24,000 nt of DNA from Candidatus Saccharimonadales bacterium. Lineage in GTDB: Bacteria; Patescibacteriota; Saccharimonadia; Saccharimonadales; JAGQMS01. Below, piece after piece: positions 2,250 through 21,792 of the stretch. Under the pieces are notes generated by a model that was not told the DNA's origin, did no database searches, and saw only the letters and a program-made list of their open reading frames with translations. The position numbers and the translations under genes were made by a program. The stretch covers positions 16,739-40,738 of the forward strand of contig JBGSMB010000033.1 in assembly GCA_041740375.1 (NCBI GenBank). Reading direction: 5' to 3'. Numbering within the stretch: the stretch's first letter is position 1; each line of letters starts with the position of its first letter.

Positions 2250-2258
2250 GATAAGCTC

Positions 2259-6910: not shown

Positions 6911-7547
6911 ATGTTCCTTTCGGTTCCCCAGTTAAAAAGATTCTTGGATTTACTGTGACACCATATACATAGACCATAAAATGTAGGTGTGGCCCGGTAG
7001 ATTCACCTGTGTTTCCCATATTGCCGATTAGATCACCTGGCTTTACTTCTGTACCAATAGCAAACTCCACCACGCTATCAAGGTGACAATATTGTGAGGA
7101 TATATTATTACCATGATCTAATCTGACTGATTTGCCACAGTCTCCGGCTGGGTCATTATCGACAATGACAATCTTACCTATAGAAAAAGGTGTTACTGGC
7201 TCACCACTTAACCCCCGCTCATTTGCTATATCAATACCACTATGAGGGCCAAGAAATCTATTTTTACGCCACAATTCCCAGGTACCAAATTCATCTGATA
7301 CATATCCGCGAGTAGGCCAAGTGCTAGATATTGGTAACTCCGCAACTTTTACGCCGTCGGGATTAAATATCTCGACCAATTTAGTTACAGGATTAACAGC
7401 AGCCAAAGCGTCGCCGACTAACTGTATGCCTGAACTAGCAACCACTACAACTGCAAAGGCAGGAAGTAGTATTAAAACTGCAAGCGTCGCTAGAACTATT
7501 TTTAGTTCAGTTTTGGATGATTTCAGTATCCAAAGGAAAATCCACAT
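6891..7547 (-). CDS. M23/LytM-family metallopeptidase (membrane-anchored peptidoglycan hydrolase of the T4SS operon)
   Basis: 218-aa ORF. N-terminal TM anchor IVLATLAVLILLPAFAVVVVA. Zinc-ligand motifs HSGIDIA (HxxxD) and GNTGESTGPHLHF (HxH). It starts 1 nt after the VirB4 stop. Confidence 0.9.
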   Translation of the reverse strand: MWIFLWILKSSKTELKIVLATLAVLILLPAFAVVVVASSGIQLVGDALAAVNPVTKLVEIFNPDGVKVAELPISSTWPTRGYVSDEFGTWELWRKNRFLGPHSGIDIANERGLSGEPVTPFSIGKIVIVDNDPAGDCGKSVRLDHGNNISSQYCHLDSVVEFAIGTEVKPGDLIGNMGNTGESTGPHLHFMVYVYGVTVNPRIFLTGEPKGTYAVPTF

Positions 7548-7548
7548 T

Positions 7549-9312
7549 TTAGGTGTATATTTCCGTCGGATTAGTTGTTATGAGTGGATGTTCTTTTTCT
7601 GAGGCAACTACTTTTACTGCAACGTGGTTCTTATCGGCAATAATCAATGCATCACCCTTGTCGCAGGTAAGTAGGAAATTGCTCTCATATTCACTTAGCC
7701 CAAACTGTGAAACAACATTCTTGATAGTTGTTGTGTCTTGCCGCATCAGAATACGCAGAGCCGATTGTGATGCAATTGCACGCCCATAGTCGCTTCGCAG
7801 AAAGTCATTAGCCTGCTGAGAGATTATTGACACGCCAAGATAGTACTTACGTGCTCTACGCACTAAACCTGATATAAAGCGTGCTGATTCTTCATGTTCT
7901 AGTAATAACCAGCCTTCATCAATAACTAGTAGCCGTTTCTTTGGTTCGTTCTTTACTTGGTTTTGTACATAGTTAGAAATAATAAGCATCATAATTTGCC
8001 GTAGTGTTTCCGGCATATCTTTGATATCAAAAACTACGAGACGGTTATCTAGACTAATATTACTTTGTGAATTAAAGACAGTCGCCAGTGAACCAGATAT
8101 GTATTTCTCAAGTCTCTCACATAGTTTAAGTTGTCCAAGGCCTTTAAGTTCTGCGTACAAATCACTAAGTATCGGAGGCTTATTATTCTTAGCCTTTTTA
8201 TAGATACCAAGCAGTGCTTTATCTACTGCTGCTTTTTCTGCAGAATTAAGTCCTTCTGCCATGAGACTTACTACCTCCATAAGATCTTGTACATGTTCAC
8301 TTAAATCTTTCTTTGAGGTGGATTTGGTTTGGATATCAAAAGGATTTAATTTCTGTCTACTATTCGCTGATAGTTTTACGTAGCTACCATCAACCGAATC
8401 ACTTAGAAGTTTGTACTCACGCTCGGGATCAATCACTATGACTGATGTACCCTGCATTAACTGCCGTAGTATCTCAACCTTAGTTGCATAGCTTTTACCC
8501 GAACCACTCTGTGCAAAGACGATTGAGTTGGCATTATGTAGACTAAACCTATCAAGAATTACTAAAGAGTTATTAGACTTATTTACTCCGTAGAGAATAC
8601 CTGATTCCTGTACTAGCTCACTACTCATAAAGGGGAATGTGAGACTGGCCGAACTACTGTCTAGGTTTCGTTTCTGACCCAGTACATCTTCTGCCCTCGG
8701 TAATATCGACTGAATACCTTCGTTTTGTTGATAGCGGGCTACTTTTGTATAGAAAAGCCGTGCACCCATAGCGTTTTCAAGAAGTTTTGTTGTCTTATCT
8801 AACTCATCAAGCGAACTTGCCGATACGCAGACGTAGATACTAATTTGAAACAGCATTTCTTGACCACGCTGAATCTTATCTCTAAGTTCCATAGCACTTT
8901 CTAGCGGATCAGTAACTTCAGGCCCGACAATTTTACCTGCACGAACCATTGCTCGCTTGGTGCTTTCTAGTTCAGTTATTTTGCGGTGTAGTTTAGGCAA
9001 AGCCTGCGTCGCTTCAACTTGTGAGATGTGATAGCTAATATCTACGTTGTGGTTGAAAGTAATGAGTGAGTTTAGCCAGCCTGAACTAGCAATAAATGGA
9101 TAGCCCGATATTAACATAGTGCGCATATATACACCGTCAATCACTAGATAATCAGGTGTTTCTTCTAACCCTGCATAGCTAATGATATCTACTGCGTCTT
9201 GTTGACCATATTCAAAGCTAAAATCTTTTGGTTTATTGTCTCGTGTCTTCTTCCAGTTTTTAACTTTCTTAGTAAGAACCTTTTTGATATCCGGAGAAGC
9301 TAGCGTGCTCAT
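7549..9312 (-). CDS. virB4: VirB4/TrbE-family T4SS ATPase (C-terminal 587-aa part of a split VirB4)
   Basis: Walker A FAQSGSGKSYATK. Walker B RLLVIDEGW. The upstream VirB4 N-domain signature is DGVYMRTMLISGYPFIASSGWLNSLI..VDISYHI. GAAGGAG lies 7 nt before the ATG, and there is an ATGA overlap with the preceding ORF. Confidence 0.9.
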   Translation of the reverse strand: MSTLASPDIKKVLTKKVKNWKKTRDNKPKDFSFEYGQQDAVDIISYAGLEETPDYLVIDGVYMRTMLISGYPFIASSGWLNSLITFNHNVDISYHISQVEATQALPKLHRKITELESTKRAMVRAGKIVGPEVTDPLESAMELRDKIQRGQEMLFQISIYVCVSASSLDELDKTTKLLENAMGARLFYTKVARYQQNEGIQSILPRAEDVLGQKRNLDSSSASLTFPFMSSELVQESGILYGVNKSNNSLVILDRFSLHNANSIVFAQSGSGKSYATKVEILRQLMQGTSVIVIDPEREYKLLSDSVDGSYVKLSANSRQKLNPFDIQTKSTSKKDLSEHVQDLMEVVSLMAEGLNSAEKAAVDKALLGIYKKAKNNKPPILSDLYAELKGLGQLKLCERLEKYISGSLATVFNSQSNISLDNRLVVFDIKDMPETLRQIMMLIISNYVQNQVKNEPKKRLLVIDEGWLLLEHEESARFISGLVRRARKYYLGVSIISQQANDFLRSDYGRAIASQSALRILMRQDTTTIKNVVSQFGLSEYESNFLLTCDKGDALIIADKNHVAVKVVASEKEHPLITTNPTEIYT

Positions 9313-9920
9313 AAATATGCTCCTTCTAGTAAGTTAATGGTCTGATTCGTTAATGGCTGAAGTTTGGCCTGCGTCGGGCTGTAGAAGCTATAGAATAGGT
9401 CTAGTGATTCAAGACTATTGAGTGGTCGTACTTGCATACCCATCCGTCCTAAACCTTTAGTAACCATATCGGTACTAAGCTTTAGAGCGGATTTAATAAC
9501 GTCAAAATCTTTATCTTTGTTCTCGGTTGGAATAACAACGTAGAAAGTTCTAGATAGAATTTTATTACTCTTAACAAGATCTTGTACGAAATGAATATAG
9601 TTTTCGGCCTGCGCTTTGTATATCTTTTGTTTTTCATTAGCAGTCTTTGAACGAAAAGATTCAAGGTATCGATCCATATCCATTTCGCGAACTCGTACAA
9701 GAATCTGAAAACTAATGTTCAGCGAGTTTAGAAAACTCTGATATGTATCGATTAGAGCATCTTGTTCCTCTTCACTCATAAGTTCAAAGTTAATACTCGA
9801 GACTTGCAAAATTCGTGCATACCGATACTTTGGCATTATAATTATGCCATCTCGTACACCTTCAATTGCAATCTGACCTCGTGAGCTTGTGCGATTATTT
9901 GACTTCTTTAATAGAGACAC
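9309..9920 (-). CDS. Soluble ~203-aa protein resembling the extreme N-terminal part of VirB4/TrbE-type ATPases (split VirB4, N-fragment)
   Basis: The ORF track gives 9309-9944 (ATG, no SD). An in-frame GTG at 9920 is preceded by AAGGAGGA plus 5 nt, so I prefer it. There is no TM segment. The segments IAIEGVRDGIIIMPKYRYARILQVSSINFELMSEEEQDALIDTYQSFLNSL and LNSLESLDLFYSFYSP resemble, from memory, the first ~200 residues of full-length VirB4 proteins. Confidence 0.6.
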   Translation of the reverse strand: MSLLKKSNNRTSSRGQIAIEGVRDGIIIMPKYRYARILQVSSINFELMSEEEQDALIDTYQSFLNSLNISFQILVRVREMDMDRYLESFRSKTANEKQKIYKAQAENYIHFVQDLVKSNKILSRTFYVVIPTENKDKDFDVIKSALKLSTDMVTKGLGRMGMQVRPLNSLESLDLFYSFYSPTQAKLQPLTNQTINLLEGAYL

Positions 9921-10395
9921 GTAATCCTCCTTTTTTTGTTGCATGAAATACTAAGTTGGCTTTTGGCTCCAAGATTATCTCTTCAAGTCGCTTCAAACTT
10001 CCAAAATCCATTTCGTGATGAATAAACTTCTTTTTGCTAGTTTCTTCGCTAGCCTGAACTGTATCTGCTTTTACTTCATATTTTTTACGTAGCTGCAGTG
10101 AGTTTTTATTGTATGTGTAGAAAGTTGGTCTTAGGTTGTACCTGGAACGGATAATTATCCAATCAACTACAAGTCTGCCTTTAATCCTAATTGCTAGGGA
10201 CGCGCATACGAGAGCAAATAAAGTCCAAATAACTATCTTGTAGGGTGAATAGCCGAGAAAAGGCGGCAAAAAAACATACATAGCACCACCTAGAAAAACA
10301 GGGGCTACTAAAAGTAGCATCTGCTTAAAAGATATGTTGCCAGCGATCTTATCTTCTACAGTAGTAATCTGAGCCGGTACGACGGTTTGTTTCAT
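9895..10395 (-). CDS. PrgI-family / VirB3-like small inner-membrane T4SS protein
   Basis: 166-aa ORF. AAGGAG lies 5 nt before the ATG, with an ATGA overlap to the upstream gene. The N-terminal segment TTVEDKIAGNISFKQMLLL is followed by two TM helices (VAPVFLGGAMYVFLPPFL, IVIWTLFALVCASLAI). That is the typical PrgI topology, and the gene sits directly upstream of VirB4. Confidence 0.7.
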   Translation of the reverse strand: MKQTVVPAQITTVEDKIAGNISFKQMLLLVAPVFLGGAMYVFLPPFLGYSPYKIVIWTLFALVCASLAIRIKGRLVVDWIIIRSRYNLRPTFYTYNKNSLQLRKKYEVKADTVQASEETSKKKFIHHEMDFGSLKRLEEIILEPKANLVFHATKKGGLRVSIKEVK

Positions 10396-11681
10396 TTATA
10401 CTCCTTTAACTTTTGACTTGATGATCTAGTAATATGAACTGTTTGAGGAGGTGCTACCCGACTGGTGCGCATTTTATCTGTAGTGTAGTGAACGCCGTTC
10501 ATGAATTGGCCACCAAGTTTGCGTAGGGCCCTTGGCCCCGCACTAACGTAACTAAGTTGCATCAGCACTCCCTGTGTCTTAAGAAGGGTAACCAGAGTTG
10601 CGACACCGATTATCGTTGCCATTACAGGATCGTATGGCTGTGGTTGACCATCTTTTTTAAGACCAACAAATAAAGTCGCTGCAAGCATTAAGATGACAAC
10701 ATGTATAAAAAGCACAAAGATGTTTGTGATGTAGACCTTTATAGCTGTGGCACTAAAATCCCTAAATCCAGGTACGCTAGACAAGAGTATTGCGAGAGGA
10801 GAAAGTATTGCTCCTACGTACAAAGTCACAATACGCATGACGTAATACACTAGCAACATTGTGGCAAGAACCAGAAATACCACCATAATTAGAAGTGCTA
10901 CCAGACCTTGACCTCCGGCACCACTTACTACGCTAGTCAACGCATCCCATACCGAGAGTGAGTCGAATACGGATTCAATAGCTTTAATCATGGCGTTACT
11001 GAGGCTGATGATGAAGTCAATAACAAATATCGACATATTCATACCAAGAAAAGTTAACCCAAGTTTTGGCAAAAGGTGCTTAAATTCAATCTCTTCAAAT
11101 CCTAATGATGCAGCACTCATGATATGAAAACCAAGTAGTGCTACAACTAATACGAATAGAGCGTTAGCTATTCCTAGTATCGCTAGCCACAACTTAAACA
11201 CAGCAGGATTATCCGCCATAAGAGGAGTACTTTGAGTAAAGTAATCGAGTGCTGCGACAAAAGGTTTTCCAGCTGTCTCGATGATGTTTTTGAAAAGTCC
11301 GATGATAGCTTTTAGGAGAACTTCTGTTAAACCTCCGTCACCATCTCCCGTGTCTATAGGGGCTAGTGACGGAATGTTTGAAATTGTATATTCACCACCA
11401 CCTTGATAGGCATTACTTAGAATCGCCGTTATTGTTCCTGCAGCGATAACAATTACTAAACCGACAATAGCATTTTTTAAAACCTTTTTAGCGTGTTCTA
11501 GTTTTTCAGGATTTCCACGGCTTCCCATATATGAGATACCTGCAGTAATAAGGAAGAATGTCGAGACTACCCCAGCCAGACCAATAAGACTTAACATGAT
11601 AGGCTGCAGGTAATTTTGTATATCAGTATTGGTTGAGGCTAGGTTCGTTGCAGGGACATGCAAGAACGCTAGCAAATTCAT
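10392..11681 (-). CDS. VirB6/TrbL-like polytopic membrane protein with an N-terminal pilin-like module
   Basis: 429-aa ORF. GGGAG plus 4 nt precedes the ATG, and it starts immediately after the pilin TAA. Residues ~20-95 are about 40% identical by eye to the upstream pilin. The remainder has at least 6 hydrophobic helices, typical of VirB6-like channel proteins. Confidence 0.7.
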   Translation of the reverse strand: MNLLAFLHVPATNLASTNTDIQNYLQPIMLSLIGLAGVVSTFFLITAGISYMGSRGNPEKLEHAKKVLKNAIVGLVIVIAAGTITAILSNAYQGGGEYTISNIPSLAPIDTGDGDGGLTEVLLKAIIGLFKNIIETAGKPFVAALDYFTQSTPLMADNPAVFKLWLAILGIANALFVLVVALLGFHIMSAASLGFEEIEFKHLLPKLGLTFLGMNMSIFVIDFIISLSNAMIKAIESVFDSLSVWDALTSVVSGAGGQGLVALLIMVVFLVLATMLLVYYVMRIVTLYVGAILSPLAILLSSVPGFRDFSATAIKVYITNIFVLFIHVVILMLAATLFVGLKKDGQPQPYDPVMATIIGVATLVTLLKTQGVLMQLSYVSAGPRALRKLGGQFMNGVHYTTDKMRTSRVAPPQTVHITRSSSQKLKEYK

Positions 11682-12026
11682 TTAACTCCCAAACGCTTTC
11701 CCAGCAACTTCTGAAATGATGTTGCTAAGTACAAAGGCACCAATAGTAATTGCTAGACCCATTCCTGAGTAGAGCAATGTTCTTTTAGATTTATCTAAGT
11801 TCTCGGGGTTGCCGGAACTTGTTATGTATCCAAACCCACCGACAACAAAAAAGCCGGTCGCTATGAGACCGGCTAATCCTGCTAGAATTTGGATGACGCT
11901 TCGGAGAAAGTTTTCTACTTGTCCGACGCCTCCCGCACTCTGTGCAAAAGCTGTGTCGGTGAGAATGAGTGGCAATCCAATCATCACCATGATGGTGAAC
12001 AGTTGGAGCATTTTGTTTTTACTCAT
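11682..12026 (-). CDS. VirB2/TrbC-like T4SS pilin (Gram-positive/CPR 'T4SS pilin' type), 114 aa
   Basis: I prefer the start at ATG 12026, which is preceded by AAGGAGG (12031-12037) plus 4 nt (TAAG). The track start at 12056 lacks an SD. Signal peptide MSKNKMLQLFTIMVMIGLPLILTDTAFAQ. Two hydrophobic helices flank a GNPENLDKSKR loop, which is the pilin hairpin topology. Confidence 0.75.
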   Translation of the reverse strand: MSKNKMLQLFTIMVMIGLPLILTDTAFAQSAGGVGQVENFLRSVIQILAGLAGLIATGFFVVGGFGYITSSGNPENLDKSKRTLLYSGMGLAITIGAFVLSNIISEVAGKAFGS

Positions 12027-12047
12027 TCTTACCTCCTTGTAAGCAAA

Positions 12048-12076
12048 ACATAACACATGTGTTTGACATAATGCAA
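12048..12076 (-). promoter_or_regulatory. Candidate sigma70-type promoter of the T4SS operon with an embedded 12-bp palindrome
   Basis: The minus strand reads TTGCAT (12071-12076), 17 nt, TTATGT (12048-12053). The perfect palindrome AACACATGTGTT (12052-12063) lies in the spacer and overlaps the -10. Sequence-only prediction. Confidence 0.35.
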
Positions 12077-12160: not shown

Positions 12161-15100
12161 CTAAGAATTTTCTAATGAGTAACCACTTGTAACTTTTTCA
12201 CGCTTAGTCAGGTATATTGGTTTGGTAGTATAGAATGCTACTTTTGTGCTGACCGCCAAGTAAAGTGCGCCACTTACTAACATAAATATAAAGGCTGGTT
12301 CGTTTAAGACTATGACGTGCCATGACGCTAGACCTGTCCATATAAGTGCTGGAATGAAGTTAAAGAAGACCTGAAGTACTCTAAATGTTGTATATCTGTA
12401 GTCTCTTCCTTTGACTGCTCCGGTTGGTTGCCACGACATAGCCTTGCGTGTAATTGCATCATAAATAGCAAACAAATGTGCCCAACCATAAACACTACGT
12501 ACTGCCCAAGCTTCTATGCCGTATGTATTCTTATGCCATAATGGGTAAATTATCCAAGAGAATATAAATGCTGGAAGAATTAAGAGTGTATATTCTAATT
12601 TCACAACCTCTGGGATTACTAACAATAAATATAGCGGTATGATTGGTGCAAAGAAAGAAATAATAGCTGTATTTATATAATATAGAAATCCAGAAATATA
12701 AGAGAGCCTAGTTCTTAATTTAAGTTTAGTACTCCAGAATTTTTCAGAAGTAAGTAGGCTCATAGAACCCATACACCACCTATATTGTTGCTTAAAGAAC
12801 GCAGGCATTGAATCTGGACACAATCCCTTCGCTAAGACTACCGGCACGTATTGAAGACCCCAACCATGCATTCTTAAATTGAAGCCGGTGTGAACGTCTT
12901 CAGAGTGTTCAATTAAGGCTGTACCGCCGGTATCATTTAAAGCCGCTCTACGGTATAGCGCGTTACTACCAACACAAATCGCCGCACCATGATGTTGTCT
13001 AGACACTTGCGAGAATCTATAAAATAATTCTTGAACAGCTCCAGCTCCACGCTCAAGCCAGTTTTGACCATTGTGAACATCAAAATACTGAGGAGATTGT
13101 ATAATGCCTAATTTCTCATCTTTTTCCATATAGGGCAGTAGTTCATTCAAAAAGTCAAAACGAGGCTTAAAGTCGGCATCAAAAATAACTATGAATTCTC
13201 CATTTGAAACACCATATCCATGTCTTAAGTTTCCTGCTTTTTTATGTTGACCTCGATTAGGCCTTGATTCATATTTGAATCCGTATTTATCAGATAACTT
13301 TTTCACTTCATCTCTTGCACTATCATCTAGACAATAGGCTATGATTTTGCCGCGGTAATTTTTCATAACGTCATGAACGCCGTCCCATGTGTTGGCCAAT
13401 ACTCCAATATCTTCACCGGCCGTAGGTAAGAATATGTCAATGCTAGGGTATTTTTTCGGCCTCCAAGCTAATACAAGTGCTTTATGTGCACTTATATCAA
13501 AATTCTTAGTACCTATATTCACAACGAAAGAAACAATGAAATAGACTACCGTTAGTGCTAGGAATCCAAACAATATCCAAATTGCTGGGTTGGCTGCAAT
13601 AAAGCGGTACATGCTTATAGATACAAAACTAAAACTTATTACAGAAAACAACATAAGCAATCTGTAGTTTCGGCTGCTATAAATCCATTTGTCATCATCA
13701 TCGGGCGATCCTGGAAGTAATTCTTTACTAGGAGCACGGAATTCGAATAGTCGGTAGTGTTCATTTATAATTTTAATTCTCAATGCTGTACGGTCGTATG
13801 TTCTGAATGTAAAGTTCAGAACAGGTTGAGCGAATGGCACAAATAGCATAGTAATAGCTGTTACGCTGCCCCAGAAAATCATGATAGGAGACGTGCGACC
13901 TGTAGATAATGATGAAATAATTCCCAACAAAGCAGTGCCACCAATTAGGAGATGTGGCCAAAAAAGCTTTAAAGAATCTTCGTTGAAAACCTTGTCATCA
14001 CCTTTTGGCGTCACCTTATATGATAATTTCTTACGAGCAGATACTCCTATGAATGCTATGAAGAAGATAGGCCAAGATGCTGCACTTATAATTTTGCCAG
14101 CAAACATGAATCCTTTCTCCTCTTTAGGTCGTACGTGGAATCTCTGCATCCATAATGCCATAAGACCAACTACAGCAATAACCGGAAGATAGATTGAAAC
14201 AAATGGTATGAATTCAACCTTTGCTGTATTGATACCGAACATAAAATAGAGTACTAGTCCAATAGAACCTATAGTCATCGCAAGACCTGAAAAATAATGC
14301 TGTTGAAGCATAAAGTAATATGTTTTCTGCCTTAGGCTCATAGTTCTAAATAGCTTGAAACTAAAGTGACGAAGAACATGCATGCATCCGTAAGCCCAAC
14401 GCATTTGTTGCGCAAAATAAGCCTGCCAGGTTGTTGGACCTTCTCCGATTGCTAAGGCTTCACTTACATAGGTACTCTTCCAGCCATTTGCATGTAGTTT
14501 CATACCCGTGAGGAGATCTTCAGTGATATGTGCGCTATAGTGATCTACATCTTCTAGTGCCTTAACCCTTATGACGTGGTTAGCGCCGATCAACATTGTC
14601 ATATCCATACCCTGAAAACCGCGAAGTATAGGACCATAGAAACTATATGTCTGTTCAGCTGCACCACGTGCAATTAGTGAGTCGGCAGTATTTCCGTATA
14701 TCTGAGGAGTGCCTACAAATGCAATTTTAGGATCTTTAAAATAACCTAAAGTTTTAGTAAGGAAGTCTTTACTAGGAATGAAGTCTGTATCCATTTGTGC
14801 AACAAAATCATACTGATGACCATGGGCGTCATACCAAGAGTTATGGTTTCCGCCTTTAGTCTTTTTAGCAAACTTACCGTCATCAGTATTATATGTTGCT
14901 TCTTCAGCACGACTAAAATGTTTTACTCCATATTTTTTACAAATAAGCCTAACTTCTGGATCGTTGCCTTCGTCTAATAACCACGTATCGTGTTTATAAT
15001 TAGCCCTAACTAAAGCTGGAAGACATTTATGTAGCAAATCTACTGATTCCGATGCAGGAACAAAGGTGGTAATAAACGCTACTTTTAATCCTTTTTCTGG

Positions 15101-15340
15101 TTTTGAAGCGGTGTGTTCTTTAATGTTTGAAAGTACAGACCATGAGAAAATCGCCATAACAATTGGATGCCATATTACATAAGACACAAACAAGAAAAGT
15201 AAGATATCAAAAATATTAAACCAGTCATCAAAATTATTTGGAATGTGAGACGGGTTAAACCACCACACAGCAAAAATAGACACTAGTATCAGTGCCGCAG
15301 TACTAAATGCGGTGTGCAATCGCTTGCCATATTTATTCAC
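12161..15340 (-). CDS. Tandem double processive family-2 glycosyltransferase (two BcsA/CesA-like synthase modules in one 1059-aa membrane protein)
   Basis: GTG start at 15340. Module A motifs: LLDEGND, KGGN, DTDF, TPQIY, TEDLLTG, QQMRW (nt 14396-14410), YKVTPKG. Module B motifs: CLDDSARD, KAGN, DADF, SPQYF, SEDVHTG, QQYRW (nt 12776-12790). Each module is flanked by its own set of TM helices. Equivalent motifs are offset by ~540 residues. Confidence 0.9.
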   Translation of the reverse strand: MNKYGKRLHTAFSTAALILVSIFAVWWFNPSHIPNNFDDWFNIFDILLFLFVSYVIWHPIVMAIFSWSVLSNIKEHTASKPEKGLKVAFITTFVPASESVDLLHKCLPALVRANYKHDTWLLDEGNDPEVRLICKKYGVKHFSRAEEATYNTDDGKFAKKTKGGNHNSWYDAHGHQYDFVAQMDTDFIPSKDFLTKTLGYFKDPKIAFVGTPQIYGNTADSLIARGAAEQTYSFYGPILRGFQGMDMTMLIGANHVIRVKALEDVDHYSAHITEDLLTGMKLHANGWKSTYVSEALAIGEGPTTWQAYFAQQMRWAYGCMHVLRHFSFKLFRTMSLRQKTYYFMLQQHYFSGLAMTIGSIGLVLYFMFGINTAKVEFIPFVSIYLPVIAVVGLMALWMQRFHVRPKEEKGFMFAGKIISAASWPIFFIAFIGVSARKKLSYKVTPKGDDKVFNEDSLKLFWPHLLIGGTALLGIISSLSTGRTSPIMIFWGSVTAITMLFVPFAQPVLNFTFRTYDRTALRIKIINEHYRLFEFRAPSKELLPGSPDDDDKWIYSSRNYRLLMLFSVISFSFVSISMYRFIAANPAIWILFGFLALTVVYFIVSFVVNIGTKNFDISAHKALVLAWRPKKYPSIDIFLPTAGEDIGVLANTWDGVHDVMKNYRGKIIAYCLDDSARDEVKKLSDKYGFKYESRPNRGQHKKAGNLRHGYGVSNGEFIVIFDADFKPRFDFLNELLPYMEKDEKLGIIQSPQYFDVHNGQNWLERGAGAVQELFYRFSQVSRQHHGAAICVGSNALYRRAALNDTGGTALIEHSEDVHTGFNLRMHGWGLQYVPVVLAKGLCPDSMPAFFKQQYRWCMGSMSLLTSEKFWSTKLKLRTRLSYISGFLYYINTAIISFFAPIIPLYLLLVIPEVVKLEYTLLILPAFIFSWIIYPLWHKNTYGIEAWAVRSVYGWAHLFAIYDAITRKAMSWQPTGAVKGRDYRYTTFRVLQVFFNFIPALIWTGLASWHVIVLNEPAFIFMLVSGALYLAVSTKVAFYTTKPIYLTKREKVTSGYSLENS

Positions 15341-15347
15341 TAGTATT

Positions 15348-15376
15348 ATTTTAACACAAAATTAACTATTAGACAA
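15348..15376 (-). promoter_or_regulatory. Candidate promoter of the double-GT2 gene (extended -10, leaderless geometry)
   Basis: The minus strand reads TTGTCT (15371-15376), 17 nt including TGt (15354-15356), then TAAAAT (15348-15353). Seven nt follow, then GTG at 15340. There is no SD in the gap. Confidence 0.45.
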
Positions 15377-15807
15377 TTTGTATTGTGTTTTATTTTCCAA
15401 TAAATAATTACGTATTGTTGCTAGTGAATTATCTACTTGAACAACTATTTTGTTCAGGTAGAATTATACTAATTATGTTCTGTTACATCTGTTAATTATG
15501 CATTTGATTTGATAATATAAAATCAATTATGAAATAATATCCATGCTCCTAACCATGTTTTTTCCTTTTTATTTTGACCTAGAATTCAGTTATTTCTAAC
15601 TATAAATAACGTTCTAAATAGTTGAAATAGGATATTGATATTTTAATTCGTAGTCAATTTAAGTTAGTTATTATCAGAAATAGTTTTTACAGCTAAGATA
15701 ATATTATTGATCTTTACTTAATCATTTGAAGAAAAATAATCACAAAATTTTGTTTTATAAAACTTTCTGTTGACTATCTGTAAGGATTAACTATCCGTAG
15801 TAGGATA

Positions 15808-15816
15808 TGCTACAAT
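15808..15816 (+). promoter_or_regulatory. Extended -10 element TGcTACAAT upstream of the XRE gene (leaderless geometry)
   Basis: TGCTACAAT at 15808-15816, then 10 nt (TTAACAAGTT, no SD), then ATG 15827. A possible -35 TTAACT lies 18 nt upstream. Confidence 0.45.
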
Positions 15817-15826
15817 TTAACAAGTT

Positions 15827-16024
15827 ATGGCAAAATCAGCAGCTATCATGTTCAAACAGGCAAGGCTCAAAAAAGAACTTACCCAATTTGAAGTTGCCGA
15901 AAAAGCAGGGATACATCCTAATACTTATGCAAAAATTGAAAGAGGACTACAGGAGCCTTCATTCGCATCTATTATAAAGATCTGCAAAGTTCTAGATCTT
16001 AATATCGCCGACATCCCAGCTTAG
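15827..16024 (+). CDS. XRE-family helix-turn-helix transcriptional regulator (65 aa)
   Basis: The HTH_3-type segment is LTQFEVAEKAGIHPNTYAKIERGLQEPSFASIIKICKVL. The size is typical of Cro/CI-like regulators. Confidence 0.8.
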   Translation: MAKSAAIMFKQARLKKELTQFEVAEKAGIHPNTYAKIERGLQEPSFASIIKICKVLDLNIADIPA

Positions 16025-16487
16025 TAAATTTCTTCATCTGACTACTCATCACTACCGAACAAGTTCTTCGCATAATCTCGCAACTTTCACTCTGAGAAAA
16101 TATATTCAAACTTCCTTCCCAAAGTATCTCATCATCTACAATAGCAATTTTTCTATGTCTCATATCATCGCATATGTATACTCTAACTCCACATGTTTTC
16201 AATATTTCTAATGCCTTCCATGCCTGAACTTCAAGTATCTTGTCGTGATGTCTAGGATTCCGAGTGTAGATTACTATGGTTACTCCCTCCTTAATTTTAC
16301 GCTTAAGCAGTTTTGAGAACTGACGTACACGTCTTTCAGTGAGATATGGGCTCTCGACCATTACTGATTGCTTTGCATTGCTTACGTCCCGTGCGAACGC
16401 ATCATAAAAGCTGGCTTCATCGCATAATCTTGAGATTAATAGCGCAGATGAGTCTAAAGAACGTTGTGGGCGTGTTATTCTGAACAT
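15999..16487 (-). CDS. Single-HKD phospholipase D-superfamily nuclease (Nuc-like), 162 aa
   Basis: HKD motif HRKIAIVDDEILWEGSLN (HxK(x)4D...GSxN). The size matches dimeric Nuc-type endonucleases. GGAGG lies 9 nt before ATG 16487. No signal peptide is evident. Confidence 0.8.
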   Translation of the reverse strand: MFRITRPQRSLDSSALLISRLCDEASFYDAFARDVSNAKQSVMVESPYLTERRVRQFSKLLKRKIKEGVTIVIYTRNPRHHDKILEVQAWKALEILKTCGVRVYICDDMRHRKIAIVDDEILWEGSLNIFSQSESCEIMRRTCSVVMSSQMKKFTKLGCRRY

Positions 16488-16619
16488 AACTCATCCTCCG
16501 TAGTATCATCAAGCAGTTTCTGGATTTCTTCCACATCATCACAGTTTTGAAAATCCTCATCTGTAAAAGTTCCATTATCGTACTGTCTCCCCAGCCAAGT
16601 TTTATCAGAGGATTAGTAT

Positions 16620-17606
16620 ATGGCTAACAACGTAACATTTATAGTTGGTAACGGTCTTGACTTGTCTTTAAGGCTTAATACTTCATACCGAAACTTTTAC
16701 GAGTATGTTAAGAAAAATAAGTTACACGAAGCAAATAGTATATATAGGGCTATTGAGAAGGAAGACCCGGAACACTGGGCGGACTTTGAATTAGGCTTAG
16801 GTAGATTTACAAATAAAATCGAAGACGTAACTGAAAAAGAGCGAGCACTATGGTCTCAAACTTTAAATGATGAACTAGATGAGATTAAAAAGGATTTGAA
16901 ACGCTATATCAGAGAACAAAATATTCTCGCTGACGATAGTATTCCTAACATTATATTCGAACGAGAATCGTTTTACCAAGGCTTAGAGATTGGACAGGTT
17001 GCAAACACTACTCGTGCAATAAATTTCCCCGATCAAACAAATATGCGATTTATTACACTTAATTACACAAATGTACTAGAGAAGTTATTCCCTAATATTG
17101 GTCGTGCGGTAGCTGGTCGAAATTATGTTATTAGTGATCGGATACATCATGTTCATGGCTCTATAGATACCAAAATTTCACTTGGAGTAAATGACGACTC
17201 TCAGATAAGTAGTTATATAGATGCTGATGAAAAAAAATACCTTATAAAACCTGAGCTTATCCGTCAAATGAACGACGGCAGGCTTGAAACTCTGGAAAGA
17301 TACATTGATCTTTGCGATGTTTTAGTGCTATTTGGAGTATCACTAGGTGCTACAGATAAGTATATTTGGATTAAAGCAGCGCAGTGGTTAAATAGTGGAC
17401 ACAATAGGCTACTTATTATTCATCATTTTGAAAAGGGACTAGACGTTAGTGAACTTACTGAACGAGAGGCATTGCAGTTAGAGGACCGCGTGAAGAATAA
17501 GTTTTTAAATTACTCAAATTTTAGTGAAGAGGTAGTAGATACACTGAAGACAAAAATCTATGTTATCGCAAATACAAAGGAATTATTTTCGATTAAAACT
17601 AAGTAA
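16620..17606 (+). CDS. abiH: AbiH-family abortive-infection-like protein (328 aa)
   Basis: The N-terminus TFIVGNGLDLSLRLNTSYRNFYEYV matches the AbiH signature (I/V)GNG(F/L)DL..L.TSY..F as I recall it. Later motifs are LNYTNVLE, HHVHGS and VLFGVSLGATDKYIW. GAGGA lies 7 nt before the ATG. Confidence 0.75.
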   Translation: MANNVTFIVGNGLDLSLRLNTSYRNFYEYVKKNKLHEANSIYRAIEKEDPEHWADFELGLGRFTNKIEDVTEKERALWSQTLNDELDEIKKDLKRYIREQNILADDSIPNIIFERESFYQGLEIGQVANTTRAINFPDQTNMRFITLNYTNVLEKLFPNIGRAVAGRNYVISDRIHHVHGSIDTKISLGVNDDSQISSYIDADEKKYLIKPELIRQMNDGRLETLERYIDLCDVLVLFGVSLGATDKYIWIKAAQWLNSGHNRLLIIHHFEKGLDVSELTEREALQLEDRVKNKFLNYSNFSEEVVDTLKTKIYVIANTKELFSIKTK

Positions 17607-17706
17607 AAAGACCGGTCTTGAATAGCTATAGCATCAAAGCTAGAGTCCATGTGGTTGATAAAATATATTGTAATCCAAATGGCATCATTAAAGAGTAAGC
17701 GATATG

Positions 17707-17715
17707 TGCTACAAT
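17707..17715 (+). promoter_or_regulatory. Extended -10 element TGcTACAAT upstream of the PD-(D/E)xK gene (leaderless geometry)
   Basis: TGCTACAAT at 17707-17715, then 8 nt (TTTTTTCA, no SD), then ATG 17724. The surrounding GATATGTGCTACAATTT nearly duplicates GATATGCTACAATTT upstream of the XRE gene. Confidence 0.45.
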
Positions 17716-17723
17716 TTTTTTCA

Positions 17724-18212
17724 ATGAGTAGCAATCTTGAATTTACCCGGGCCCTTGTCAAGGGCAGGATTGCCGAAACTATTTTCTCGCAGATGTTTCG
17801 ACAAAACGGAAACTACACTGTGATGGAATTTGGTTACGAGAAGGTTATCCCGCAGTTAACTGGTCGTTTATATGACCATAACGACATAGTGATCGAAACG
17901 CTTCGAGTAGCCCCTGACTTCGCGGTAATAAAACAGGACTCCGGTCATGTTCGTCTGATAGAAGTGAAATATCGCAAGAAACTTAACAAAGACGATACTC
18001 TTAAATGCGCGAAAAAGATGCACGTGTCGTGGAACCCCTCCTGCTTATTTATAGCTACTCTCGATGGCTTTTACTTTGATGAAATAACCACAATTATAGA
18101 AAACGGTGGCGATATGCCGCCTCTTGAAGAGATATCAAGCGAACTGCAAGAAAAATATTTGCAAATACTTATAGACTTCGAAAGTGGCGAAAGCACCGAA
18201 AACGTACAGTAG
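17724..18212 (+). CDS. Small PD-(D/E)xK (restriction endonuclease / Hjc-like fold) nuclease, 162 aa
   Basis: I prefer ATG 17724 (MSSNLEF...) because a -10 element sits inside the longer track ORF (17649). Catalytic-core pattern: GRIAETIF (E), VAPDFAVI (D), RLIEVKYRK (ExK). The C-terminal tail is acidic. Confidence 0.6.
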   Translation: MSSNLEFTRALVKGRIAETIFSQMFRQNGNYTVMEFGYEKVIPQLTGRLYDHNDIVIETLRVAPDFAVIKQDSGHVRLIEVKYRKKLNKDDTLKCAKKMHVSWNPSCLFIATLDGFYFDEITTIIENGGDMPPLEEISSELQEKYLQILIDFESGESTENVQ

Positions 18213-18288: not shown

Positions 18289-18801
18289 TCAATTTAGTTC
18301 TGCGGTTGCAAAAGTTATCGTAAATGCCCTGCACCAGATGACGACTGTCTTGTAGTCACCAAAGTTACTCGGTAAATTATAAGCTTGTTCTCCACTAATG
18401 CTTTTAAGCTTGCCGAGAGAAGCAAATTCACCAAGTGGCTCATCTGATGAATTTGGTGACAAATATACCAATAGATCGGGACCATTAGTTACCTTAAAGT
18501 TGTCGCCAAATACCAATATTGGGCCCTCTTCGGTGTTTACGACTGATACATCTCCACTACCTGAGTGCACTGCATCACCATCTTTAAATTGTCCTTTTAG
18601 CATTGTGGCCGGGTTGATTGTGTCGCTATCAGACATAGCGGGGATAGAAATATTTGTTTGTTGTGCTACTTCTACGCTAGGCTCAGCGTTGATATTTTTA
18701 TATGCGTAAAGTGCGATCCCGCTGATTACCACCAAAACAGATAAACCGATGGCTATCAGTACGGTCTTTTTTGTGAAATCAGTTTTTTTATTTTTGATCA
18801 C
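18289..18801 (-). CDS. DM13 domain protein with N-terminal membrane anchor
   Basis: DM13-type segment: GQFKDGDAVHSGSGDVSVV...ILVFGDNFKVTNGPDLLVYL...VVIWCRAFTITFATAEL. Signal anchor VLIAIGLSVLVVISGIALYAY. I chose GTG 18801 because TGaTACAAT (18810-18818) lies 8 nt upstream. ATG 18819 or 18888 remain possible starts. Confidence 0.7.
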   Translation of the reverse strand: MIKNKKTDFTKKTVLIAIGLSVLVVISGIALYAYKNINAEPSVEVAQQTNISIPAMSDSDTINPATMLKGQFKDGDAVHSGSGDVSVVNTEEGPILVFGDNFKVTNGPDLLVYLSPNSSDEPLGEFASLGKLKSISGEQAYNLPSNFGDYKTVVIWCRAFTITFATAELN

Positions 18802-18809
18802 TAAAAAAA

Positions 18810-18818
18810 ATTGTATCA
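18810..18818 (-). promoter_or_regulatory. Extended -10 element TGaTACAAT upstream of the DM13 gene (leaderless geometry)
   Basis: The minus strand reads TGATACAAT, then TTTTTTTA (8 nt), then GTG 18801. The spacing and T-run are nearly identical to the 17707-17726 element. Confidence 0.4.
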
Positions 18819-18862
18819 TGCACCGATTCATGCAACAATATGTAAGGTTAACTAGACATATT

Positions 18863-19087
18863 ATGTTTATAAGAGATAAAGAGCACACGGTGGTAAATAC
18901 GGTACGCGAAGCACGTACTGCTCTTAAGATTACCCAAGACGAGTTGGCCGATAAGGTGCAGGCGACCAGACAGACAATAATTGCAATAGAAAAAGGTAAC
19001 TATGTGCCGAGTGTACTGCTTGCGCTTAGAATTGCCGCTATACTAGGAAAGAAGGTGGAGGAGATCTTTCAATATGAAAAAATATAA
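18863..19087 (+). CDS. Short XRE/HTH_3-type transcriptional regulator (~65-74 aa)
   Basis: HTH segment ITQDELADKVQATRQTIIAIEKGNYVPSVLLALRIAAILGKKVEEIF. This is typical of the small regulators that precede a membrane protein. The start is uncertain: ATG 18863 or GTG 18890. The 112-aa track version (18749) runs through the divergent DM13 promoter and is unlikely. Confidence 0.7.
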   Translation: MFIRDKEHTVVNTVREARTALKITQDELADKVQATRQTIIAIEKGNYVPSVLLALRIAAILGKKVEEIFQYEKI

Positions 19088-19439
19088 ACAGATACTAGAT
19101 ATCGTTCTACTTATTGGTCTAGCGGCCATCGCTTTATTATCCGTAGCTCCTGATACCTTCGTAATGCCTTCTAGCTTACAAATGTTAGTACTTGCAGCCG
19201 TGCTTGGACTTATATCAACATTCTTGGTTTTATTTTGGCGCGAACAGCCAGACGATGAGCGCGAAATGCACAACCAAGCTCTCGCGAGTCGTTCGGCTTA
19301 TACTGTCGGTTCACTTGTTCTTATTGCAGCACTTATAATTCAAAGCATCAATCATAGCCTCGACCCTGCGGTGCCTATAGCGCTACTAGCAATGATAGCT
19401 ACAAAGGTTATCGTTCAACGCATCAAAGACGGTGAATAG
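19074..19439 (+). CDS. Small integral membrane protein (4 predicted TM helices) coupled to the HTH regulator
   Basis: 121-aa ORF overlapping the regulator gene by 14 nt. Hydrophobic helices flank a DDEREMHNQ loop. This resembles the HTH plus small-membrane-protein pairs common in Gram-positive bacteria. Function unknown. Confidence 0.6.
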   Translation: MKKYKQILDIVLLIGLAAIALLSVAPDTFVMPSSLQMLVLAAVLGLISTFLVLFWREQPDDEREMHNQALASRSAYTVGSLVLIAALIIQSINHSLDPAVPIALLAMIATKVIVQRIKDGE

Positions 19440-19455
19440 TAAATGTTAAGTCAAC

Positions 19456-19485
19456 TTGACATTATTTACATACCCCAACTATACT
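19456..19485 (+). promoter_or_regulatory. Candidate sigma70 promoter of the thioredoxin-DipZ operon
   Basis: TTGACA (19456-19461), 18 nt, TATACT (19480-19485). The downstream leader contains GAGGG (19503-19507) before the ATG codons at 19510 and 19513. Confidence 0.5.
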
Positions 19486-19512
19486 ATTTTGTATAAATAA
19501 GTGAGGGAAATG

Positions 19513-20061
19513 ATGAACAAAAAAGGAATAGTAATCGTAAGTATCGTCGTAGGACTATTCTTGGTCGGAGGTGGCGTATTGGCATACACCAACAATCAGA
19601 ATGACAAAAAAGAGCAAAAACAGATGGCAATGGAGAAGAAAACAGAAGATGAGGCCATGATGAAAAAAGAAGAAGCAGCAGCCATGGAGAAAGAAAAGAT
19701 GGCAAAAGAGGGCGAAGTAATGGTCAAGGATGAAGCTATGAGCAAAGAAGGTTCATATATAACCCTTGCGGATTACAATGCGGACCAGAGTAAATATGCT
19801 GATTCAAAGAAAGTTTACTTTTTCCATGCGAGTTGGTGTCCAATTTGCCAAGGTATCGACAAAGAGATCAAAGCTGACATGTCCAAGATTCCAGCCGGAG
19901 TAACATTTATCAAAACAGATTTTGATAATTCTACTGATCTTCGTCAGAAGTATGGCGTCACTACTCAATACACATTTGTTGAGGTTGACAGTGATGGCAC
20001 CGAAATAAATCAGTGGTCAGCGACTTCACTTCAAAAAGCCGTTGATGGCATAGATTCGTAG
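19513..20061 (+). CDS. Membrane-anchored thioredoxin-fold protein (WCPIC active site) with a Met/Glu/Lys-rich linker
   Basis: CxxC motif FFHASWCPICQGI. N-terminal TM helix IVIVSIVVGLFLVGGGVLAY. I chose the start 5 nt after GAGGG. The track start GTG 19501 overlaps the SD. Confidence 0.8.
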   Translation: MNKKGIVIVSIVVGLFLVGGGVLAYTNNQNDKKEQKQMAMEKKTEDEAMMKKEEAAAMEKEKMAKEGEVMVKDEAMSKEGSYITLADYNADQSKYADSKKVYFFHASWCPICQGIDKEIKADMSKIPAGVTFIKTDFDNSTDLRQKYGVTTQYTFVEVDSDGTEINQWSATSLQKAVDGIDS

Positions 20062-20070
20062 GTCTACGAT

Positions 20071-21792
20071 ATGCTGGTAACGGCGCTACTTTCATACGTT
20101 GCTGGGCTACTGACAGTATTAGCCCCGTGCGTGCTTCCTCTTCTACCAATTATCCTTGGAGGAAGTCTTGCTGGAGAGAAAAAAGACAAATGGCGACCAT
20201 ATATAATCACGGCTAGCTTAGTCGTATCGTTAATACTGTTTACTCTACTGCTCAAAGCTTCGACCGTATTTATCGGTATAGATCCTAGGGTATGGACTAT
20301 CGGCGCAGGAATTCTGGTAATCACCCTAGGTTTCTTTATGCTCTTTCCAGACTTGTGGGCGCAAATTATTGGAAAGTTGGGGATAGAGCACAGATCGCAG
20401 GGCTTGCTCGGGAAAGCATACAAGCAGGAAAATAGCGTACTGTCGGCAATTTTAATAGGCGCCGCACTTGGACCAATTTTCAGTAGTTGTAGTCCTACAT
20501 ACGCGTGGGTTATAGCTACGGTACTGCCTTCTAGCACCTTGCTCGGAATGTTTTATCTAACTTTCTATGTCCTGGGTGTAGCTACGGCGCTGTTGGCTAT
20601 CGCTCTGCTTGGACGTAGATTACTCGAGCGAATAAAGTGGGCGAGCGACCCGAAAGGCTGGTTTCAGCGAGGTATTGCCATCCTATTCATAATTGTTGGA
20701 ATCTTTGTTGCAACAGGATGGGATAAAAACGTTCAGACCTACTTGGTAGAAAAAGACTTTTTAAATATTAAGTCGCTGGAAGAAAAATTAGTCCCCGAAA
20801 ATGATAGTTCTTCAAAAACAAACAGCAATAGTTCGATCAATAAGGAAATGTTCAACGTTACAGCCTATGATGCGCCTGAGCTTAAGAACATCGCAGCATG
20901 GATCAATAGTGACCCACAAACAATTGCTAGCCTAAAAGGTAAAGTGGTACTACTAGATTTTTGGACCTATTCTTGTATCAATTGCGTACGCACACAGCCA
21001 TACTTGAACGCTTGGTATGAAAAATACAAAGACGATGGCCTAGTGATACTTGGTATTCATGCGCCGGAGTTTGCGTTTGAGAAAGTCACTGAAAATGTTC
21101 AAGGAGCGGTAGAGGACGCGGGCATAAAGTATCCAGTTGCTCTGGACAACGATTTTGCTACCTGGAATAATTACGAAAACCGATTTTGGCCAGCAAAATA
21201 CTTAATCGATAAAGACGGCCAGGTTAGATATACGCACTTTGGCGAAGGTGATTATGCCGAAACAGAAGAAACAATTCAGGCGCTGCTAAAAGAATCGGGT
21301 CAGGTAGTTACGGACAATATTGAAAATACTTTTAGCTCAGGTTTAGCGGTACGAGGACAAACTCCAGAAACATATTTAGGCTATGAACGTGCGGAGCGCT
21401 TTGCGAATGCCGATCAGTTTGTAGCAAATCAACCAGTGAACTTTACGCTTAAGAGTGAACTTGACGCAAACGAATGGTCGTTAGGTGGACAATGGCAGAT
21501 CAACAACGAGTCCAGCCAAAGTCTTTCTGATGCTTCAAAGCTCAGAATAAACTTTTCAGCTAAGGAGGTCTTCCTCGTGATGAGTGGCCCACCCGGTGCG
21601 ACCGTCCTCGCGTCAGTCGACGGTATCGATACACCGGGTGGAATTGATGTAAACGCTCAAGGTCAAGTAATAATTGATAAAGCAAGGTTGTATAAGATCG
21701 TAAATGCTGACAAATATCTGACGAATAAGCAACTAACACTAACAATACCTGCGGGCGTTACGGTTAATGCGTTCACGTTTGGCGGCCAGTAA
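20071..21792 (+). CDS. dipZ: DipZ-type protein: CcdA/DsbD-like transmembrane thiol-electron transporter fused to a TlpA/ResA-like thioredoxin domain and a C-terminal beta-rich domain
   Basis: The two TM cysteines are LAPCVLPLLP and FSSCSPTY (DsbD/CcdA core). Periplasmic thioredoxin motifs: FWTYSCINCVRTQPYL, GIHAPEFAFE, YPVALDNDFATWNNYENRFWPAKYLIDKDG, GEGDYAETE. This matches the DipZ architecture known from actinobacteria. Confidence 0.85.
   Translation: MLVTALLSYVAGLLTVLAPCVLPLLPIILGGSLAGEKKDKWRPYIITASLVVSLILFTLLLKASTVFIGIDPRVWTIGAGILVITLGFFMLFPDLWAQIIGKLGIEHRSQGLLGKAYKQENSVLSAILIGAALGPIFSSCSPTYAWVIATVLPSSTLLGMFYLTFYVLGVATALLAIALLGRRLLERIKWASDPKGWFQRGIAILFIIVGIFVATGWDKNVQTYLVEKDFLNIKSLEEKLVPENDSSSKTNSNSSINKEMFNVTAYDAPELKNIAAWINSDPQTIASLKGKVVLLDFWTYSCINCVRTQPYLNAWYEKYKDDGLVILGIHAPEFAFEKVTENVQGAVEDAGIKYPVALDNDFATWNNYENRFWPAKYLIDKDGQVRYTHFGEGDYAETEETIQALLKESGQVVTDNIENTFSSGLAVRGQTPETYLGYERAERFANADQFVANQPVNFTLKSELDANEWSLGGQWQINNESSQSLSDASKLRINFSAKEVFLVMSGPPGATVLASVDGIDTPGGIDVNAQGQVIIDKARLYKIVNADKYLTNKQLTLTIPAGVTVNAFTFGGQ

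Follow-up and report, generated by a model that had tools for sequence, protein, structure and literature searches.

To our knowledge, the characterised channel-forming glycan synthases (BcsA, CesA, hyaluronan synthase (HAS) and chitin synthase (Chs)) all combine one catalytic site with one channel per polypeptide, and output of several chains or several polymers is achieved via non-covalent oligomers. In the stretch of DNA considered here, a window of 24,000 nucleotides (nt) from a Candidatus Saccharimonadales bacterium (GCA_041740375.1, contig JBGSMB010000033.1, positions 16,739 to 40,738), an uninterrupted open reading frame (ORF; 12161-15340, minus strand, GTG start) encodes a protein of 1059 amino acids (aa) in which the motifs of such a synthase occur twice. 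The question hence arises whether one polypeptide can accommodate two working synthases and what these would produce. From our point of view it is probable, though far from certain, that the protein is a covalent hetero-dimer of two complete BcsA/CesA-type synthase-translocases which exports two, probably different, β-glycans.

A first-pass annotation, made from the letters of the window, had proposed that the protein contains two full and divergent processive glycosyltransferase family 2 (GT2) modules, here called A (N-terminal) and B, and had put their boundary at 13692/13693. The approximate place of this boundary holds, but the exact base lies one out of frame; the halves that we searched separately are the in-frame residues 1-550 and 551-1059 (split 13690/13691), and the natural module boundary falls at about residue 530/531 (nt 13750/13751). 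The proposal of two modules is borne out by each half alone matching the Pfam families Glyco_trans_2_3 (E 1.8e-22 for A, 3.8e-24 for B), Cellulose_synt (E 2.5e-7 and 7.3e-7), Glyco_tranf_2_3 and Glyco_transf_21. The NCBIfam model CelA (TIGR03030) gives 139 bits for half A, 160 bits for half B and 288 bits for the whole protein, as compared with 44-48 bits for the PgaC and NodC models. Aligned with each other, as the annotation had suggested doing, the halves show 28% identity over 313 aa (E 6e-25), a likeness that is far above chance. In a sequence search of the PDB, BcsA was the best match of module A (E 1.9e-27) and E. coli BcsA that of module B (E 3.7e-35), and no HAS, Chs or PgaC chain was found for either module at E 1e-3 or better. 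The PDB alignments pair the motifs KxGN, DxD, (V)QxPQ, TED and QxxRW with those of BcsA, and for module A also FxVTxK. The earlier motif list and its coordinates could be confirmed as well (QQMRW at aa 311-315 and QQYRW at aa 851-855; Table 1). Neither PilZ, whose absence had already been remarked upon, nor any further domain was found in Pfam and NCBIfam scans of the protein. In databases its orthologs are labelled just "cellulose synthase (UDP-forming)" or "glycosyltransferase".

The claim of two separate catalytic sites would be untenable if one of the modules were a pseudo-GT scaffold, a case that the first-pass annotation itself had named. This objection fails because both modules retain an intact set of catalytic residues that does not vary. 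When 28 full-length fused orthologs (42-75% identity) are aligned, the residues D123, K162, G164, N165, D184, D186, P212, Q213, G252, E274 and D275 of the module A catalytic domain are invariant in all 28 sequences, as are Q311, Q312, R314 and W315 of its interface helix IF2 and Y441, T444 and K446 of the gating loop. For module B the same is true of D672, D673, K700-N704, D721-D723, Q748, Q751, C789, G791, E814 and D815, of Q851, Q852, R854 and W855 in IF2', and of W970 and G974 in the loop, where P972 and T973 are nearly invariant. The corresponding pairs are D123/D672, D184xD186/D721xD723, E274-D275/E814-D815 and Q311-Q312-x-R314-W315/Q851-Q852-x-R854-W855, so both modules possess the GT-A motifs required in the BcsA/CesA/HAS/Chs superfamily, and the set D, DxD, (T/S)ED and QQxRW is invariant also across 119 A and 154 B modules. 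Compared with five orthologs, the proportion of nonsynonymous differences (pN) is 0.07-0.28 and similar in both modules, and that of synonymous differences (pS) is 0.74-0.89 in both; the two are given instead of dN/dS because synonymous sites are saturated. These values point to strong purifying selection on both modules, neither of which appears to be a decaying pseudo-enzyme, and both look catalytically active.

The two sites are, however, not interchangeable copies. Between the A and B clades, 42 well-conserved alignment columns are identical, all catalytic residues among them, yet another 30 columns are fixed within each clade and differ between the two. Many of the latter lie beside motifs (LDE/LDD, VGTPQxY/VQSPQxF, IGxxH/VGxxA, TED/SED, RWA..C/RWC..S and K446/T973), a pattern that functionally differentiated paralogs would show.

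An AlphaFold2 (AF2) model of the full protein, built from an alignment of 89 sequences, reached a mean predicted local distance difference test (pLDDT) of 92.7 and a predicted template-modelling score (pTM) of 0.72. It contains the same layout twice over, namely two transmembrane (TM) helices, a GT-A α/β domain, the QQxRW interface helix, two TM helices, a second interface helix, a loop and two further TM helices, and thereby agrees with the earlier expectation of two N-terminal TM helices and a C-terminal TM bundle per module; AF2 and hydropathy both give six TM helices in each. In both modules the model sets the GT domain between putative channel-forming TM helices with amphipathic interface helices, and two membrane bundles with one channel per module are predicted. 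According to hydropathy and positive-inside analysis, the K/R-rich loops all lie on the GT side and, since the number of TM helices per module is even, both GT domains should face the cytoplasm, which would make the fusion topologically consistent. The last helix of module A reaches into the cytoplasm in the model and runs via a 29-residue junction directly into module B. This junction, in which P543 is invariant and E533, E550, K551 and Y554 are nearly so among the fused orthologs, corresponds to the native N-terminus of single-module B-type proteins, which start at query residue 528-545 or thereabouts; the protein ends 24 aa past TM6'. In a Foldseek search against the PDB, BcsA came first (4p00_A, E 4e-22, TMt 0.56), followed by plant CesA, hyaluronan synthases and CslF6. 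The soluble K4CP was the sole two-GT2 protein among the matches, and a poor one (TMq 0.17, root-mean-square deviation (rmsd) about 34 Å).

With respect to the origin of the protein, the first-pass annotation had judged the modules to be divergent and no recent duplication, and the phylogeny agrees. In a neighbour-joining tree, the 273 module cores separate cleanly into an A clade of 119 and a B clade of 154 members, each with single-module orthologs of its own, and the fused A modules, like the fused B modules, mostly form one group. Module A orthologs (47-60% identity) are Patescibacteria proteins, and among its relatives some are singles of ~600 aa and others are ~1100 aa long, with an unrelated domain of ~10 TM helices after module A. 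Module B has single-module orthologs of ~540 aa (50-64% identity), found in Saccharibacteria and also in Streptomyces, Kitasatospora, Longispora, Ktedonobacterales and Paracoccaceae. The A-type is a Patescibacteria-specific lineage and the B-type one that is shared with Actinobacteria, Chloroflexota and Alphaproteobacteria, and the protein is a fusion of two old paralog lineages and no duplication product. Separate A and B genes adjoin each other in other Patescibacteria (loci L001, L009, L014 and L017), in many cases accompanied by secreted GH16, GH6 or GH26 β-glycanases, so the fusion hard-wires an older partnership of two synthase genes.

The spread of the fused architecture, which the annotation had proposed to survey, proved to be narrow. 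A search of a representative library of 1.84 billion proteins returned 8,748 homologs at E≤1e-3, and among the best 150 of these (50%-identity cluster representatives) four are two-module proteins (P0017, P0036, P0239, P0033); among GTDB species representatives only a handful of loci are fused. There are nevertheless at least 28 independent fused orthologs, from independent samples and with one in the complete genome CP025011.1, which excludes the misassembly that had been considered as another objection. The fusion thus seems, as far as these collections reach, to be both rare and evolutionarily conserved.

Several related arrangements were seen along the way. In reverse order, a divergent B-like module (32-43% identity) precedes an A module, as a single fused protein in P0033 and as adjacent ORFs in L029 (4189-7422) and L033 (1223-4872), which indicates repeated independent pairing of the A-type synthase with a second synthase. 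Fusions with divergent modules occur as well, and the outliers of the tree (P0030/P0036, P0032/P0034 and the reverse-order P0033) indicate further independent combinations of synthases. The closest relative of the window gene (L010, 1017-4051, 86% identity; metagenome-assembled genome (MAG) JTS-AC137 of the Saccharimonadales) falls apart into two ORFs because of a frameshift around residue 150-190, which is either a sequencing error or a sign of a pseudogene. An unfused cluster in a Microsaccharimonas MAG (L009, 3809-9650) consists of an A-type single (minus strand), a glycoside hydrolase family 16 (GH16) gene, a 531-aa polytopic protein (listed as PF27792 CHIM_prot, with a weak PMT_2 match at E 3.7e-4) and a B-type single (plus strand). 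In Levyibacteriota-type Patescibacteria (L001 1570-4914, L016, L017, L020, L021; P0042-P0089), module A is joined to an unrelated ~580-aa domain ("A+ext") with about 10 TM helices, a β-rich C-terminal part and an invariant FYSDDW loop. This domain has no Pfam match and no profile similarity to PMT_2, and the idea that it is a GT-C/PMT_2 domain was dropped for want of sequence or profile support (hmmsearch E>0.02, hhalign probability <1%); in an AF2 model (pLDDT 82) searched with Foldseek, only the BcsA part was recovered.

Among known systems, BcsA is the nearest match of both modules in sequence and structure, sharing with them the GT2 GT-A fold, the D/DxD/TED/QxxRW motifs, the interface helices, the TM bundle and, in module A, a gating loop of the FxVTxK type (YKVTPK), from which SWQPTG in module B diverges. 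BcsA is, however, one unit with 8 TM helices, whereas here two such units with 6 TM helices each share one chain. It also ends in a PilZ domain for cyclic di-GMP (c-di-GMP), in whose place the last helix of module A leads directly into module B; lacking PilZ, the protein should not be under c-di-GMP control at the enzyme itself. The FFCGS motif of BcsA aligns to MLIGA in module A and to ICVGS in module B. Neither the halves nor the whole protein reach the TIGR03030 equivalog cut-off of 699.1 bits, PRK11498 likewise stays below equivalog level (230 bits vs a cut-off of 992), and the window holds none of the genes of a bcs operon (BcsB, BcsZ/GH8, BcsC), relatives being accompanied by GH16, GH6 or GH26 instead. 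With score, PilZ, partner genes and context all failing, the fused protein does not rank as a BcsA equivalog.

Conceptually, and by analogy, the closest system appears to be the hetero-oligomers of plant CesA. In plant CesA/Csl proteins (CesA1/3/6; CslF6), different channel-forming GT2 paralogs likewise stand side by side with several chains emerging together, and these proteins carry a similar TED(I/L)LTG..H..GW motif and no PilZ either. Plant CesA, however, are separate polypeptides in non-covalent trimers and rosettes, whereas the pairing described here is covalent, bacterial and without P-CR/CSR or RING domains. Two GT2 domains per polypeptide are also found in PmHAS, the class II hyaluronan synthase of Pasteurella, and in the chondroitin polymerase K4CP of E. 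coli K4 (2Z86), but these are soluble or peripheral and channel-less, with two sites alternating on one chain, whereas here each GT domain has its own predicted TM bundle; on this model the fused protein would not belong to their dual-domain type. Gene fusion and tandem paralogy are known from synthase-dependent exopolysaccharide (EPS) operons in the form of BcsAB (AcsAB) and tandem pgaC paralogs, but BcsAB joins a synthase to the non-synthase partner BcsB, tandem pgaC are separate genes, and no synthase-synthase fusion is found there (PMC7112194). Our literature searches gave no description of a synthase-synthase fusion, nor of cellulose-synthase-like genes in Saccharibacteria or Patescibacteria. 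EPS genes have been reported as important (essential) in the cultivated Saccharibacterium Southlakia; a link to these was rejected, since they are of the Wzx/Wzy type and "cellulose synthase" is absent from the supplementary tables of that paper.

As to the products, both modules resemble cellulose synthase more closely than PgaC, NodC, HAS or Chs, in models and in the PDB search. GlcNAc polymerases carry (G/L)EDR and QRRRW-type motifs, and membership in this group (chitin synthase, NodC, HAS, PgaC) failed on the motifs TEDLLTG/SEDVHTG and QQMRW/QQYRW. Membrane-anchored or secreted β-glycanases recur near related synthases: in L004, L013 and L014 the synthase gene(s) have a GH16 gene upstream in divergent orientation, and L009 has one next to its separate A gene; in CP025011 the fused gene overlaps at its 3' end with a GH6 gene; and GH26 follows the A+ext genes in all five Levyibacteriota-type loci with enough downstream flank and, in more than 50 loci of Actinobacteria, the B-type genes. 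In known synthase systems, enzymes of the BcsZ/CslZ type trim the glycan, and this parallel suggests that the products of the fused synthase may be β-linked glycans. An assignment of GH16 to module A and of GH26/GH6 to module B was dropped, as GH26 also follows A+ext genes without any B gene. In the locus of a 73%-identical ortholog (L090), a gene for an NAD-dependent sugar epimerase/dehydratase (8584-9552) lies directly upstream of the fused synthase on the same strand, which could be a hint at the nucleotide-sugar donor.

The B lineage further leads to a strongly conserved operon in Streptomyces, Kitasatospora, Longispora, Phytohabitans and others (L008, L031-L087), which comprises a BcsA-like GT2, a GH26 with a lipoprotein signal, 1-3 GT-C proteins of the PMT_2 type, a UDP-sugar dehydrogenase and a small GT2, and which is apparently uncharacterised so far. 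Its synthase belongs to the module B clade but is single-module, and the GT-C (PMT_2) and sugar-activation genes found there are absent from the window. Over its full length this synthase shares 50-53% identity with module B of the Saccharibacteria, which suggests gene transfer across phyla between Saccharibacteria and Actinobacteria; Actinobacteria are the host phylum of the cultivated Saccharibacteria, which live as epibionts. In the CslA-GlxA-CslZ system the synthase gene is followed by that of the radical copper oxidase GlxA. The candidate equation of module B with Streptomyces CslA was rejected, as its Streptomyces relative (P0199, L008) sits in the GH26-PMT_2-UDP-sugar dehydrogenase operon and no GlxA-type Pfam domain was found; the GH26/PMT_2 arrangement recurs in more than 50 loci of Actinobacteria.

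Taken as a mechanism, each module would build a β-linked chain of its own from a nucleotide-sugar (a UDP-hexose being the likeliest) and push this chain through its own channel, so that one polypeptide would release two chains at a single membrane site in a fixed 1:1 stoichiometry. The two chains would probably be chemically different, since the lineages of the modules differ, around the active site, at positions that are fixed within each clade. More far-reaching, and to our mind possible but tentative, is the proposal of a natural two-channel synthase that co-extrudes two distinct β-glycans (e.g. β-1,4 and β-1,3 or mixed-linkage) which then assemble together as a composite fibre or surface layer, and that was built in Saccharibacteria by fusing a Patescibacteria-specific synthase to one shared, probably by horizontal transfer, with Actinobacteria. 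Several points weigh against the export of two different β-glycans: no glycanase gene is present at the locus in the window itself; A-type genes in Levyibacteriota and B-type genes in Actinobacteria alike are accompanied by GH26, so the neighbours assign no product to either module; and with both modules far below the curated BcsA cut-off and without FFCGS, "cellulose" is no more than a candidate product for either. Both modules might instead make the same homopolymer, such as β-1,4-glucan, and form a minimal "terminal complex" whose two identical chains pair into a fibril. This would fit with BcsA being nearest to both modules among solved structures and curated families and with the GH6 gene at the end of the CP025011 gene, GH6 enzymes being β-1,4-glucanases, but it is unlikely given that the modules share just 28% identity, that their lineages also stand alone in different phyla, that the 30 fixed differences cluster by active-site motifs and gating loop, and that the glycanase family varies between GH16, GH6 and GH26 in related loci. 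That the two sites cooperate on one chain to give an alternating or block heteropolymer, as in PmHAS and K4CP, is suggested by the presence of two GT2 sites in one polypeptide and by K4CP among the Foldseek matches; the match to this soluble type is, however, poor, and both module types stand alone in many genomes. As each module is predicted to have a channel apparatus of its own, comprising a full TM bundle, interface helices and a loop of the gating type, and as the acceptor end remains in the channel mouth in structures of BcsA-type enzymes, so that a chain could not shuttle between sites, such cooperation would be mechanistically unlikely and we regard it as very improbable. Lastly, it is scarcely credible that one of the modules lacks catalysis and serves as a scaffold or regulatory pseudo-enzyme, or that two neighbouring genes were joined into this ORF by an assembly or frameshift error. 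Some relatives are indeed split into adjacent ORFs (L014, L029, L033, with P0031 and P0129 listed alongside) and the L010 ortholog is frameshifted, but the invariant catalytic residues and equally low pN of both modules, the conserved junction and the number of full-length fused orthologs speak against it.

The first-pass annotation had also taken the position of the synthase gene upstream of, and co-oriented with, a type IV secretion system (T4SS) as a hint at a combined surface or attachment locus. In such a locus, if co-regulated, the glycan would aid T4SS-mediated host contact. The window does hold a complete monoderm-type T4SS cluster (4310-12056, minus strand) downstream of the synthase, without a relaxase seen within the window, and since the 105-nt spacer between them contains only a weak hairpin, transcriptional read-through from the synthase into the T4SS could occur in this genome. 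T4SS genes also lie near the synthase in L090, where a VirD4 homolog (51% identical) stands beside it. There, however, the cluster is inverted, so that VirD4 and the synthase gene point towards each other. Of the 11 distinct loci with fused or adjacent genes whose flanks could be used, the other nine have no T4SS gene within about 10 kb. T4SS loci of this kind occur widely among Patescibacteria, on the chromosome, and a survey of their neighbourhoods there makes no mention of glycosyltransferases (PMC12102498). Coupling to the T4SS was hence ruled out as a conserved feature and a joint locus appears improbable; the T4SS would be a chromosomal neighbour and no conserved functional partner of the synthase.

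The block of synthase and T4SS genes is flanked by defence and mobile-element genes (78-4156 and 15827-18212), and GmrSD, methylase or SMODS genes likewise lie close by in L090 and L088; the synthase gene thus tends to sit in a variable island. Further on lies a redox/envelope cluster (18289-21792), which also includes a helix-turn-helix (HTH) regulator. The AT-rich region of 486 nt ahead of the synthase gene is presumed to be its promoter or leader. A riboswitch or structured leader in place of PilZ control was considered and dropped, as this leader has no Rfam riboswitch match and a fold z-score of just -2.3. The coordinates of all features are collected in Table 1.

Table 1. Features of the double-synthase gene and its surroundings in the window (positions count from the first letter of the window).
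Feature	Position	Strand	Basis or remark
Whole tandem double-synthase gene	12161-15340	-	GTG start at 15340, stop codon 12161-12163; full-length orthologs (43-75% identity) align from residue 1
Module A, aa 1-530, A-type BcsA-like synthase	13751-15340	-	Pfam/NCBIfam matches; best PDB match BcsA; A clade of 119 modules
Module A N-terminal TM hairpin (TM1 aa 3-27, TM2 aa 39-70)	15131-15334	-	AF2 helices and hydropathy
Module A GT-A catalytic domain, aa 87-300	14441-15082	-	motif positions; residues invariant in 28 fused orthologs
Module A motif LLDEGND	14960-14980	-	
Module A motif KGGN	14846-14857	-	
Module A motif DTD(F)	14780-14791	-	
Module A motif TPQIY	14696-14710	-	
Module A motif LIGAN	14579-14593	-	
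Module A motif TEDLLTG	14504-14524	-	
Module A interface helix IF2 with QQMRW (14396-14410)	14348-14428	-	AF2 helix 305-331
Module A C-terminal bundle TM3-TM6 and IF3	13820-14335	-	AF2 helices 336-368, 377-401, 413-434, 457-480, 485-529
Module A gating-loop-like YKVTPKG	14000-14020	-	aligns to BcsA FAVTAK
Junction aa 530-558, K/R-rich, conserved, predicted cytoplasmic	13667-13753	-	pLDDT about 79-83
Module B, aa 531-1059, B-type BcsA-like synthase	12164-13750	-	Pfam/NCBIfam matches; best PDB match E. coli BcsA; B clade of 154 modules
Module B N-terminal TM hairpin (aa 559-583, 590-608)	13517-13666	-	AF2 helices and hydropathy
Module B GT-A catalytic domain, aa 634-840	12821-13441	-	motif positions and invariant residues
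Module B motif CLDDSARD	13310-13333	-	
Module B motif KAGN	13229-13240	-	
Module B motif DAD(F)	13169-13180	-	
Module B motif SPQYF	13082-13096	-	
Module B motif ICVGS	12965-12979	-	
Module B motif SEDVHTG	12884-12904	-	
Module B interface helix IF2' with QQYRW (12776-12790)	12752-12808	-	AF2 helix 845-863
Module B C-terminal bundle TM3'-TM6' and IF3'	12236-12718	-	AF2 helices 875-897, 915-936, 942-964, 981-1010, 1015-1035
Module B divergent gating-loop motif SWQPTG	12419-12436	-	
AT-rich upstream region, about 30% GC, 486 nt	15341-15826	-	shared with the divergent XRE-type HTH gene
XRE-type HTH, 65 aa	15827-16024	+	partly overlaps the PLD gene
VirD4	4310-6910	-	
M23 peptidase	6891-7547	-	
VirB4-like ATPase	7549-9312	-	
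211-aa ORF between VirB4-like ATPase and PrgI genes	9309-9944	-	
PrgI	9895-10395	-	
VirB6/TrbL with N-terminal pilin-like domain	10392-11681	-	
TrbC/VirB2 pilin	11682-12056	-	
GmrSD	78-2249		
DUF2779/Cas4-like protein	2259-3737		
PLD-family nuclease	15999-16487	-	
AbiH	16620-17606		
TnsA-like endonuclease	17649-18212		
DM13-domain protein	18289-18888	-	
Thioredoxin-like protein	19501-20061		
DsbD-TM/redoxin/thioredoxin fusion	20071-21792		

Overall, if the fused protein is indeed a pair of active synthase-translocases, it may be the first processive synthase with two channels to be known from nature. It would then provide a compact model for the coordination between neighbouring channels, for the templating of composite polysaccharide materials and for surface building in the genome-reduced Patescibacteria, to which the Saccharibacteria as ultra-small epibiotic bacteria belong, with the clean experimental handle that sites A and B can be silenced separately. 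It further points to two uncharacterised synthase families, namely the A-type of Patescibacteria and the B-type, which in Streptomyces comes with the GH26/PMT_2 operon.

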